A stretch of DNA of 57,927 nt from Veleropilina oligotropha. Lineage: Eukaryota. A model generated the notes under the pieces. That model did no database searches. It had not been told where the DNA came from and worked only from the letters and a program-made list of their open reading frames with translations. The stretch covers positions 496,001 through 553,927 of the forward strand of contig JBEUKZ010000006.1 of NCBI GenBank assembly GCA_048128005.1. Reading direction: 5' to 3'. Of this stretch, positions 21,210-21,841 are shown piece by piece. Position 1 is the first letter of the stretch; each line of letters opens with the position of its first letter. A program made the position numbers and the translations under genes.

Positions 21210-21841
21210 TGGACAACAAACCCTCAGCGCCAACGCTGTACCCACAACTTGGTGGCGATGTGCCTTCGGAAGTTCCGGAGGCACAGTCTTTCCGACTACA
21301 GAAAGTGAATGAGCTCCAGGGGCAGCTAGAACGAGAACGGGATGCTCGAGCCGCACTATATAAAAAGTACCGACGAGGTGTTAACGTCGTTGACGGTATA
21401 GATAACGGACTAGTCGTCGCCACACTTGGTATGGGTAGCGCTGGAATTGGTCTACTTTCCACAATTGTAGCCGCCCCGGTCGTCCTAGTGCTGGAATTAG
21501 CGGCATTAGGGTGTGGGCTCGCCAGTATGGGTGGGAAATATATCAGCCGGCGCCTCGGGGTGAAGGCTAAGAAACACGACGAGATTCGAGTCCTGGCCGA
21601 CAGCAAGCTGAATACCATAACCGACCACGTCTCAAAGGCCTTAGCGGACGGGGTGATGTCTGATGATGAATTCCAACTGGTCACAGGGGAGATGGAGAAA
21701 TACCAAGCCATGAAGGCATCAATTCGGGATAAGAGTAGGAAGGCGCACACCGCGATTTCACAGACCCAGAGCGAGCTTATTGAGCGTGGTCGTTTAGAGG
21801 GTCGTGCAGAGCTGCTGAAAAAAATCGGAGCTGGCGACTAA
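21206..21841 (+). CDS. Two-TM hairpin membrane protein with coiled coils and N-terminal PSAP/LYPxL motifs
   Basis: MMDNKPSAPTLYPQL...FRLQKVNELQGQLERE...hydrophobic Gly-rich hairpin...KAKKHDEIRVLADSKLNTI...; ATG overlaps the upstream stop. Confidence 0.8.
   Translation: MMDNKPSAPTLYPQLGGDVPSEVPEAQSFRLQKVNELQGQLERERDARAALYKKYRRGVNVVDGIDNGLVVATLGMGSAGIGLLSTIVAAPVVLVLELAALGCGLASMGGKYISRRLGVKAKKHDEIRVLADSKLNTITDHVSKALADGVMSDDEFQLVTGEMEKYQAMKASIRDKSRKAHTAISQTQSELIERGRLEGRAELLKKIGAGD

Follow-up and report, generated by a model that had tools for sequence, protein, structure and literature searches.

Within a stretch of 57,927 nucleotides of the Veleropilina oligotropha genome (assembly GCA_048128005.1, contig JBEUKZ010000006.1, positions 496,001 to 553,927 of the forward strand; hereafter the window), a 15,693-bp element, which forms a GC-rich island and is bounded by terminal inverted repeats, carries the gene of P0001, a membrane-hairpin protein of 211 aa that begins with two short motifs, PSAP and LYPQL. 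[quoted passage not shown] Judging from sequence conservation and by analogy with a known viral system, we lean, with moderate confidence, towards the view that the two motifs are functional TSG101 and ALIX late domains on an egress adaptor working like the NS3 protein of orbiviruses. The motifs, the selective maintenance of YPxL and probably of P[ST]AP in homologues, the fold and predicted topology of P0001 and its membership in a viral element are established here; that the element uses ESCRT is what we infer from them, and as far as sequence analysis goes this idea is supported.

The reading frame of P0001 comprises 211 codons from the ATG at position 21206, and its product starts MMDNKPSAPTLYPQLGG. 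Read as MMDNK-PSAP-T-LYPQL, the N-terminus contains the motif pair at nucleotides 21221-21250, and the position and reading given in the original prediction were exact. PSAP (aa 6-9) satisfies the core consensus P-[ST]-A-P of P(S/T)AP motifs, and LYPQL (aa 11-15) satisfies that of (L)YPx(n)L motifs, Y-P-x(1-3)-L, often preceded by leucine. The start codon of P0001 overlaps the stop codon of the upstream open reading frame (ORF) in an ATGA, and both motifs lie outside the overlap with the upstream frame. None of the other element ORFs of at least 50 aa contained P[ST]AP or a YPxL of one-residue spacing. The P0001 gene is considered viral because it lies within a repeat-bounded element together with genes for a capsid protein, an A32-type ATPase and an integrase, and because the gene order is kept.

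Conservation of the motifs was analyzed in the tails of homologous proteins, a tail being everything before the conserved core; it counted as usable when it measured at least 8 aa in a protein that started with M and whose core was recognised. Expected counts were obtained from 200 shuffles of the identical tails. Homologue searches returned 317 proteins at E ≤ 1e-3, and a second search returned 1276 cluster representatives (50%-identity clusters, E ≤ 1e-3). Set 1 consisted of the 120 best 90%-identity cluster representatives, 51-63% identical to P0001 (115 usable, 5 dropped); set 2 of 149 representatives of 50%-identity clusters (79 usable, 70 dropped as fragments or for tails shorter than 8 aa); and set 3 of 116 new, more distant proteins found with a profile of distant members (89 usable), including entries named from Clytia hemisphaerica and Nematostella vectensis. 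YPx[LI] was present in 108, P[ST]AP in 70 and both in 66 of the 115 tails of set 1, compared with 2.5, 2.0 and 0.04 after shuffling. The corresponding figures were 58, 29 and 27 of 79 in set 2 (shuffled, 1.4, 0.6 and 0.02) and 78, 75 and 67 of 89 in set 3 (shuffled, 2.8, 0.5 and 0.0). Outside the tails, sets 1 and 2 contained zero YPx[LI] and 0-2 P[ST]AP in 23,399 and 13,815 residues, respectively. The motifs were still present at 27-45% core identity, and the relatives concerned included proteins annotated from Cnidaria as well as sets with mainly Mollusca among their taxa. Metagenome data contributed 64 loci, among which 43 copies had a complete 5′ end; YPx[LI] was found in 36 of these and strict P[ST]AP in 11. 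For both motifs, conservation across homologues, which the original prediction had named as a check, thus greatly exceeds the chance level, in the three sets as well as at the metagenome loci.

The residues that are kept are those defining TSG101 and ALIX ligands, which speaks for reading the motifs as late domains. The site logos of set 2 read [LIV]-Y-P-x-[LIV]-P and [PA]-[ST]-A-P-P. At the 64 YP sites found in the 79 tails, where the proline after the tyrosine holds by construction, position −1 was L, I or V in 60 and the residue after x was L, I or V in 62; at the 42 [ST]AP sites the preceding residue was P in 29 and A in 9. In P0001 itself, Y12 and P13 of LYPQL are at least 90% conserved in a 91-sequence alignment of the family (A1). 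Some family members have exactly LYPDL, and in many, such as the homologues at metagenome loci L008-L013, LYPxL stands at the extreme N-terminus. The surroundings of the motifs are far less constant: the tail region is gap-rich in an alignment of 34 close homologues (A2) and its remaining residues are unalignable, tail length varies, P[ST]AP comes first in 13 and YPxL in 14 tails of set 2, and the spacing ranges from 0 to 12 residues. Such variable order and spacing, with drifting flanks, is what one would expect of two short linear motifs under independent selection. Repeated, independent switches of motif order are not demonstrated, since in a FastTree tree of the core (73 rows, poorly resolved, with 13 of 70 inner branches well supported) order changed 6 times among 27 rows and the well-supported branches forced just 1 of these changes. 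We conclude that YPxL, and probably also P[ST]AP, is selectively maintained.

We modelled P0001 with AlphaFold2 on alignment A1, which gave a mean predicted local distance difference test score (pLDDT) of 91.2 and a predicted template modelling score (pTM) of 0.79. The model has helices at aa 25-83, 87-148 and 153-209, preceded by a coil at aa 1-24 with pLDDT of about 63, in keeping with the disordered tail that the original prediction had thought likely; this tail contains 1 Lys/Arg, 4 Asp/Glu and 19% Pro. Kyte-Doolittle hydropathy peaks over a 44-residue stretch, aa 68-111, which forms the tip of the hairpin made by helices 1 and 2, so that the coiled coil and the two-helix hydrophobic hairpin of that prediction are both present. 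Helix 1 (pLDDT 85-98) contains an invariant R30 and, with at least 90% conservation in A1, E44, R48 and Y55. The first arm of the hairpin is rich in glycine, P91 at its turn shows at least 90% conservation in A1 and no variation in A2, and E97 within the second arm is invariant across the 34 sequences of A2. The C-terminal helices pack against helix 1 in a modelled three-helix bundle, in which K123 is invariant and K120 and H124 are at least 90% conserved (A1). Both termini are predicted to be cytosolic, because the turn comprises only 3-4 residues, the flanks of the hairpin carry 6 and 7 Lys/Arg (including the conserved patches K53-R57 and R115-H124), as the positive-inside rule would have it, and no signal peptide or N-terminal hydrophobic signal was seen by eye. 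The tail is thus predicted on the side of the membrane where ESCRT-binding motifs would be expected to act, as a check named in the original prediction required, and this would hold whether the hairpin spans the bilayer twice or dips into one leaflet. By these predictions, the motifs sit in a flexible region exposed to the cytosol.

A protein of this build could act in egress as follows. The hydrophobic hairpin would insert into a host membrane from the cytosolic side, leaving both ends in the cytosol, and the flexible tail would offer P(S/T)AP to the UEV domain of TSG101 (ESCRT-I) and (L)YPxL to the V domain of ALIX, as the identity and conservation of the motifs suggest. By analogy, the cytosolic helical bundle might hold the double-jelly-roll capsid or another virion protein at the membrane; ESCRT-III and VPS4 would then be brought in to cut the membrane neck, and particles would exit without lysis, by budding or within vesicles. 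The closest counterpart is NS3 of bluetongue virus, which, according to excerpts of PMC7409164, has two transmembrane domains, an N-terminal coiled coil and polybasic motifs before the first transmembrane domain, and whose late domains PSAP and PPRY bind TSG101 and NEDD4 in the non-lytic release of a non-enveloped capsid. Like orbivirus NS3/NS3A, P0001 is a protein of roughly 200-230 aa with N-terminal late-domain motifs (PSAP plus a second one), a predicted coiled coil, a basic patch, two membrane helices and a cytosolic C-terminus. P0001 resembles NS3 in this layout and, if the analogy holds, probably also in its job. Unlike in NS3, the second motif is YPxL, for ALIX, rather than PPRY, for NEDD4, and whereas NS3 belongs to a double-stranded RNA reovirid with a non-enveloped icosahedral capsid, P0001 belongs to a double-stranded DNA, double-jelly-roll element.

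The motif pair itself is that of HIV-1 p6, where TSG101 and ALIX motifs share one short flexible region (PMC2651531, PMC2958808 and PMC4880917, in excerpt). P0001 is like retroviral late domains, such as PTAP and LYPXnL of HIV-1 Gag p6 or YPDL of EIAV p9, in having the same pair in a short flexible region. The retroviral motifs, however, are found at the C-terminus of the capsid precursor, a soluble protein anchored through myristoyl, whereas those of P0001 are at the N-terminus of a membrane-hairpin protein separate from the capsid. An iridovirus, likewise a double-jelly-roll double-stranded DNA virus, provides a further parallel: excerpts of PMC4880917 describe how tiger frog virus uses ALIX, TSG101 and NEDD4 through YPXnL, ASAP and PPxY in the L-domain proteins VP031L, VP065L and VP093L, the ASAP variant having bound TSG101. 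Three motifs are distributed over three proteins in that virus, whereas P0001 combines two in one.

Several observations weigh against assigning late-domain function to the pair. P[ST]AP is kept far less consistently than YPxL; it is missing from 45 of 115, 50 of 79 and 14 of 89 usable tails in sets 1 to 3 and from 32 of the 43 complete metagenome copies, and ATAP, ASAP or PTVP often stands in its place. These forms may or may not bind TSG101, although the frequent ATAP and ASAP are made less troubling by the binding of the iridoviral ASAP variant. On the poorly resolved 73-row tree, the presence of P[ST]AP changed about 21 times compared with a shuffled mean of 22.9, a scatter that is close to random. 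Neither motif was found in 14 of the 73 representatives of the tree set, and the subfamily at loci L046, L047, L049, L051, L059 and L060 has a short tail devoid of both; the existence of such members indicates that the core function of the protein is independent of the motifs. YPxL would, moreover, also match the YxxPhi consensus of adaptor sorting signals, and the attachment of the capsid by the C-terminal bundle is proposed by analogy with other systems. ESCRT scission cuts necks that bud away from the cytosol, which would fit envelopment or vesicle release and not the acquisition of an internal membrane. As to NS3, its lumenal loop is glycosylated and has 21 residues, compared with the 3-4 of the turn in P0001, and no sequence kinship was found, the Pfam profile Orbi_NS3 matching neither P0001 nor any of the 91 family members at E ≤ 1.

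The motifs could instead bind ESCRT for the traffic of P0001 itself or for work on intracellular membranes, that is, in sorting to multivesicular bodies or exosomes, in turnover, or in shaping or sealing an internal membrane of the virion. We consider this unlikely, although the same motif conservation would be expected. Most viruses with the double-jelly-roll capsid fold have an internal membrane, and the element contains further small hydrophobic ORFs (13402-15541) as well as a 431-aa ORF with a C-terminal hydrophobic anchor, both recognised by eye. Cellular precedents exist: syntenin begins with a very N-terminal LYPxL. According to excerpts of PMC10253468, syntenin and other cargo adaptors of its type use LYPX(n)L to bind ALIX, leading to budding into multivesicular bodies and exosome formation. 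Syntenin, however, binds membrane cargo as a soluble PDZ adaptor, whereas P0001, being a membrane protein, bears the motif itself. As far as an internal membrane is concerned, the capsid would assemble on the cytosolic face, a geometry opposite to that of ESCRT budding, and a tail lying under the capsid would be out of reach. Own traffic, internal-membrane work and egress cannot be separated by sequence and are separable by experiment only.

Alternatively, the conserved residues could represent other linear motifs, YPxL acting as a YxxPhi signal for AP complexes and P-S/T-A-P-P as an SH3, WW or EVH1 ligand or a phosphosite, which would steer P0001 between endosomes and the plasma membrane without ESCRT. 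In the set 2 logo, the tyrosine and the Phi position (L/I/V) are indeed the most constant positions besides the proline of Y-P, YxxPhi signals act on the cytosolic tails of membrane proteins, and it is on such a tail that the motif lies, and a proline follows both motifs often enough (32 of 64 YP sites and 21 of 42 [ST]AP sites in set 2) for the tail to be simply proline-rich. YxxPhi signals, however, require neither a proline at Y+1 nor a hydrophobic residue at Y−1, and yet Y12 and P13 are both strongly conserved and 60 of the 64 sites have L, I or V at Y−1, which is the (L)YPxL form of an ALIX ligand. The pair known from HIV-1 p6 (PMC2651531, in excerpt) moreover co-occurs in 66, 27 and 67 tails of the three sets, where at most 0.04 would be expected, and a WW ligand is at odds with the rarity of PPxY, which occurred in 7 of 115 and 7 of 79 tails of sets 1 and 2. 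This alternative therefore appears improbable.

The searches for relatives of the fold bear on a third possibility, namely that P0001 mainly perforates or bends membranes, as a viroporin, a holin-like lysis protein, a SLATT-like pore or a module resembling the dynamin paddle, with the tail as an accessory regulator. Pfam gave nothing for P0001 below E 0.05, the family profile reached best E values of 0.26 and 0.68 against the sequences of solved structures, and an IMG/VR scan with a narrower alignment gave 22 pattern matches and no relative. Foldseek found no match to the P0001 model in PDB at E ≤ 1e-3, the best being BAR domains (E 0.06-0.15), and VIA-align against 48,161 chains placed BAR and F-BAR domains at Z 12.3-10.6; kinship with these domains was not drawn, since long helical bundles reach Z of about 13 by arrangement alone. 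The PADLOC profile LeoBC, by contrast with these, matched 64 of the 91 family members over almost their full length (best E 5.7e-9, in a composition-biased region), and in P0001 it aligned aa 25-194 with profile positions 411-567 of 601 (4.9e-7). Mitofusins are laid out as HR1-TM-HR2. P0001 is like LeoBC of the Eleos system, the trunk tip, or paddle, of BDLP1 and this mitofusin layout in having a long helix, a hydrophobic hairpin and a second long helix in line. LeoBC is a dynamin-like protein from bacteria, where it belongs to the Eleos defence system (10.1101/2022.12.12.520048, in excerpt), and excerpts of PMC4159319 describe, for LeoB, a region predicted to bind membrane that is flanked by the middle domain and the GED and with which profile positions 411-567 coincide, a BDLP1 paddle that inserts into the leaflet and promotes curvature, and mitofusins that share the BDLP1 architecture. 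Unlike dynamin-like proteins, P0001 has no GTPase domain, being 211 aa long and matching the profile at positions 411-567 only. The LeoBC match may reflect true kinship with dynamin paddles or merely a shared helix-hairpin-helix composition, and it found no support in the structure searches, neither in Foldseek against PDB nor among the 50 best VIA-align matches, which included no dynamin-like chain.

Further, weak matches might point to pores. The N-terminal domain of RTX proteins was matched in the Pfam scan by 12 of the 91 members and SLATT_5 by 1 (E 3.4e-6); SLATT_1 was matched by 1 in NCBIfam and RTasSLATT by 1 for each of two models in PADLOC, with no SLATT match for P0001 itself; Foldseek gave SLATT-domain giant-virus proteins at E 0.07-0.2. 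A perforating function would also agree with the glycine-rich first arm of the hairpin and the acidic residue in its second arm that is invariant in close homologues, and NS3 itself is described as a viroporin (PMC7409164, in excerpt). The profile matches, however, fall on coiled-coil and hydrophobic sequence, which is prone to composition-driven matching, and those in NCBIfam were single and scattered over unrelated hairpin proteins, chlamydial Inc proteins being among the scattered library matches. Perforation or bending would leave the retention of two ESCRT-type motifs unexplained, and for this reason it would complement an egress adaptor rather than replace it; as a main function we hold it to be improbable too. 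The LeoBC match does suggest that the hairpin could itself curve the membrane, which would suit a budding adaptor. Finally, although motifs of 4-5 residues abound in proteomes and nothing follows from one copy, the chance origin that the original prediction had allowed for is ruled out for all practical purposes by the excess over shuffled tails in all three sets and by the persistence of the motifs in distant relatives, including those from Cnidaria.

With regard to an egress role, the viral structures that P0001 matched best in BFVD belong to uncharacterised proteins from Iridovirus Liz-CrIV, Invertebrate iridescent virus 22 and Armadillidium vulgare iridescent virus (E 4e-9 to 2e-8, query TM 0.66-0.76, 23-26% identity). 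On the evidence of the models, they hint at a gene common to these elements and invertebrate iridoviruses; tiger frog virus, by contrast, is a ranavirus. A wider hypothesis, which we put forward tentatively and regard as rather doubtful, is that a very large family of Polinton-like elements in marine invertebrates (Mollusca and Cnidaria) exits non-lytically by coupling a paddle-like hairpin and dual PTAP/YPxL motifs to ESCRT, with capsids leaving in host vesicles as “quasi-enveloped” Preplasmiviricota, and that this module is shared with invertebrate iridoviruses. If true, the sharing would suggest that the elements and iridoviruses exchange genes or even stand in a helper relationship of the virophage kind.

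Late domains are a known device, and what appears new is a conserved hairpin protein carrying motifs of this type in animal Polinton-like elements. In the literature searched, we found no report of late domains or an ESCRT link in Polintons, Mavericks or virophages; the adintovirus paper does not mention late domain, TSG101 or ALIX, and PMC11161782 does not mention ESCRT, envelop*, transmembrane or membrane protein. The matter bears on whether animal Polinton and Polinton-like elements, which make up a tenth or more of some bivalve genomes at the upper end (10.1101/2025.04.19.649669, in excerpt), form particles that move between cells. A conserved, dedicated ESCRT-recruiting protein would be hard to explain for a mere transposon and would argue for an extracellular, non-lytic phase. 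If the proposed role is correct, ESCRT-dependent exit would extend to a whole class of double-jelly-roll DNA viruses, and the combination of membrane hairpin and late domains would represent a second, independently evolved solution beside orbivirus NS3.

The features of P0001 and of the element are listed in Table 1.

Table 1. Features of the P0001 gene and of the element that carries it (positions in the window)
Feature	Position	Strand	Basis
Left terminal inverted repeat, 276 nt, 5′-AG start	7720..7995	.	Repeat search; ends read
Right terminal inverted repeat, 276 nt, CT-3′ end	23137..23412	.	Repeat search; ends read
Target-site duplication GGTGC, 5 bp	7715..7719 and 23413..23417	.	Ends read
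1221-aa protein, SF1 helicase domain at aa 791-947	8749..12414	+	AAA_30 1.3e-9, AAA_19 1.7e-9
rve-type integrase	12411..13409	-	PF00665, 9.1e-8, 32.7 bits against a cut-off of 32.6
A32-type genome-packaging ATPase	15573..16205	-	PF04665 (Pox_A32), 2.9e-10
Double-jelly-roll major capsid protein, 433 aa	16177..17478	-	Model pLDDT 66, pTM 0.71
Upstream ORF pair, 246 aa and 116 aa, co-directional with P0001	20122..21209	+	ATGA overlaps
Gene of the 211-aa membrane-hairpin protein P0001	21206..21841	+	ORF reading; homologues
N-terminal tail, aa 1-24, acidic, proline-rich, coil	21206..21277	+	Model; composition
PSAP, P(S/T)AP-type late-domain motif, aa 6-9	21221..21232	+	ORF reading; homologue tails
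LYPQL, (L)YPxL-type late-domain motif, aa 11-15	21236..21250	+	ORF reading; homologue tails
Helix 1, cytosolic part, aa 25-67, “coiled coil”, basic patch K53-K54-Y55-R56-R57 at its end	21278..21406	+	Model
Hydrophobic helical hairpin, aa 68-111	21407..21538	+	Hydropathy; helix break at aa 84-86
C-terminal cytosolic helices, aa 112-211, basic stretch R115-H124 at their start	21539..21838	+	Model; hydropathy

The inverted-repeat arms were detected at 7719-7995 and 23137-23413 with 100% complementarity; the one extra base at each end of the detected repeat stems from the duplication, whose left copy has C as its last letter and whose right copy has G as its first. The element was apparently inserted recently. 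Its insertion site is a reverse-transcriptase-like sequence (window 7640-7719 and 23413-24467, with RVT_1 at 23742-24467, E 1.5e-7). Within the window, all 12 element proteins gave only self-matches, that is, no further copy.

The capsid fold was settled by structure comparison, since the profile of the capsid protein gave no match against PDB sequences. The 16 best solved chains were all double-jelly-roll capsid or scaffold proteins, and the 14 solved double-jelly-roll proteins at ranks 1-14 spanned Z 22.4 to 9.7, with PBCV-1 first (Z 22.4, rmsd 4.2, 327 aligned) and Faustovirus (20.8), ASFV p72 (19.5), Sputnik (15.9) and mavirus (15.2) among those compared; 115 viral models were matched at E ≤ 1e-3. 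One capsid homologue carries the UniRef name “Major capsid protein” and another comes from the sea slug Elysia. The close capsid homologues P0306 and P0325 were deposited under metagenome-assembled genomes of Candidatus Thiodiazotropha; this bacterium is linked with clam hosts, and the two proteins probably represent host (clam) or element DNA that was binned with the symbiont.

The original prediction had spoken of a Polinton, a label that we change to Polinton-like. The duplication is 5 bp long, whereas that of Polintons is usually 6 bp. Among strict-Polinton traits, the element has the rve integrase, long terminal inverted repeats and a target-site duplication; from the Polinton-like or Preplasmiviricota module, it has the double-jelly-roll capsid protein with an A32/FtsK-type ATPase and the SF1-helicase replication gene. 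The 5′-AG...CT-3′ repeat ends and the short duplication, with the integrase, ATPase and capsid protein, are shared with Polintons/Mavericks and Polinton-like viruses. Unlike in Polintons, no adenain-like protease family was detected with Pfam in the element ORFs, and no polymerase family was found in any element ORF of at least 150 aa, and the 1221-aa protein yielded none in its aa 1-784 at E ≤ 5 either, a test that would miss an inactivated, strongly diverged polymerase domain of the kind described in excerpts of PMC5499653. These first 784 residues matched zero Pfam families at that threshold. By the definition in PMC5499653 (in excerpt), Polinton-like viruses typically have a large SF1-helicase protein, and since the element has such a protein and no detected protein-primed polymerase B, it is classed as Polinton-like rather than as a strict Polinton. 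By its sequence, the element is the genome of a Polinton-like virus with an SF1-helicase replication protein and Polinton-type integrase and terminal repeats.

In metagenome contigs L010, L023, L027 and L035, the order integrase, 252-aa ORF, ATPase, capsid, 311-aa, 431-aa and 246-aa ORFs and P0001 homologue is kept, and the P0001 gene forms a stable component of such genomes. The integrase is 69-77% identical in 8 metagenome loci. At locus L011, the helicase and integrase are 73-74% identical to those of the window and a P0001 homologue again closes the array; the same locus has a different capsid module (3227-8194; a Pfam DJR-like domain, 5.7e-54, and a weak A32 ATPase), accompanied by a protein containing a phospholipase A2-like domain of parvovirus type (1.9e-8). 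Together with L013, L026 and L030, it shares the helicase and integrase (integrase identity 69-74%) and the late-domain protein, and its arrangement looks like a swap of the morphogenetic module. The nearest Atlas clusters have mainly Mollusca among their recorded taxa, with one mainly Preplasmiviricota. PHROGs contained no family for P0001 or three of its neighbours.

The 246-aa, 116-aa and 211-aa ORFs at 20122-21841 are chained via ATGA overlaps, a compact, operon-like arrangement in a eukaryotic element. By eye, we also noted small hydrophobic ORFs of 113, 142, 79, 173 and 252 aa on the reverse strand in the region 13402-15541, the C-terminal hydrophobic anchor of the 431-aa ORF (18819-20114, −), and a 143-aa ORF (21927-22358, +) with a signal-peptide-like start and many cysteines; none of these matched a Pfam family. 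The element seems rich in membrane proteins, as would be expected if the virion has a membrane. A 67-aa ORF (22129-22332, +), which overlaps the 143-aa ORF and is probably not a real gene, contains PPRY, the sole PPxY in the element.

Elsewhere in the window, a satellite array at 37664-45716 (33-bp unit, 244 copies, 94% match) accounts for the second GC-rich block. An Rfam search of the whole window gave no match. Another RVT_1 fragment lies at 48167-48943, and an ORF at 56949-57512 (−) encodes a DAN domain (5.6e-32), which marks the host as an animal, since it belongs to a metazoan family of secreted antagonists.

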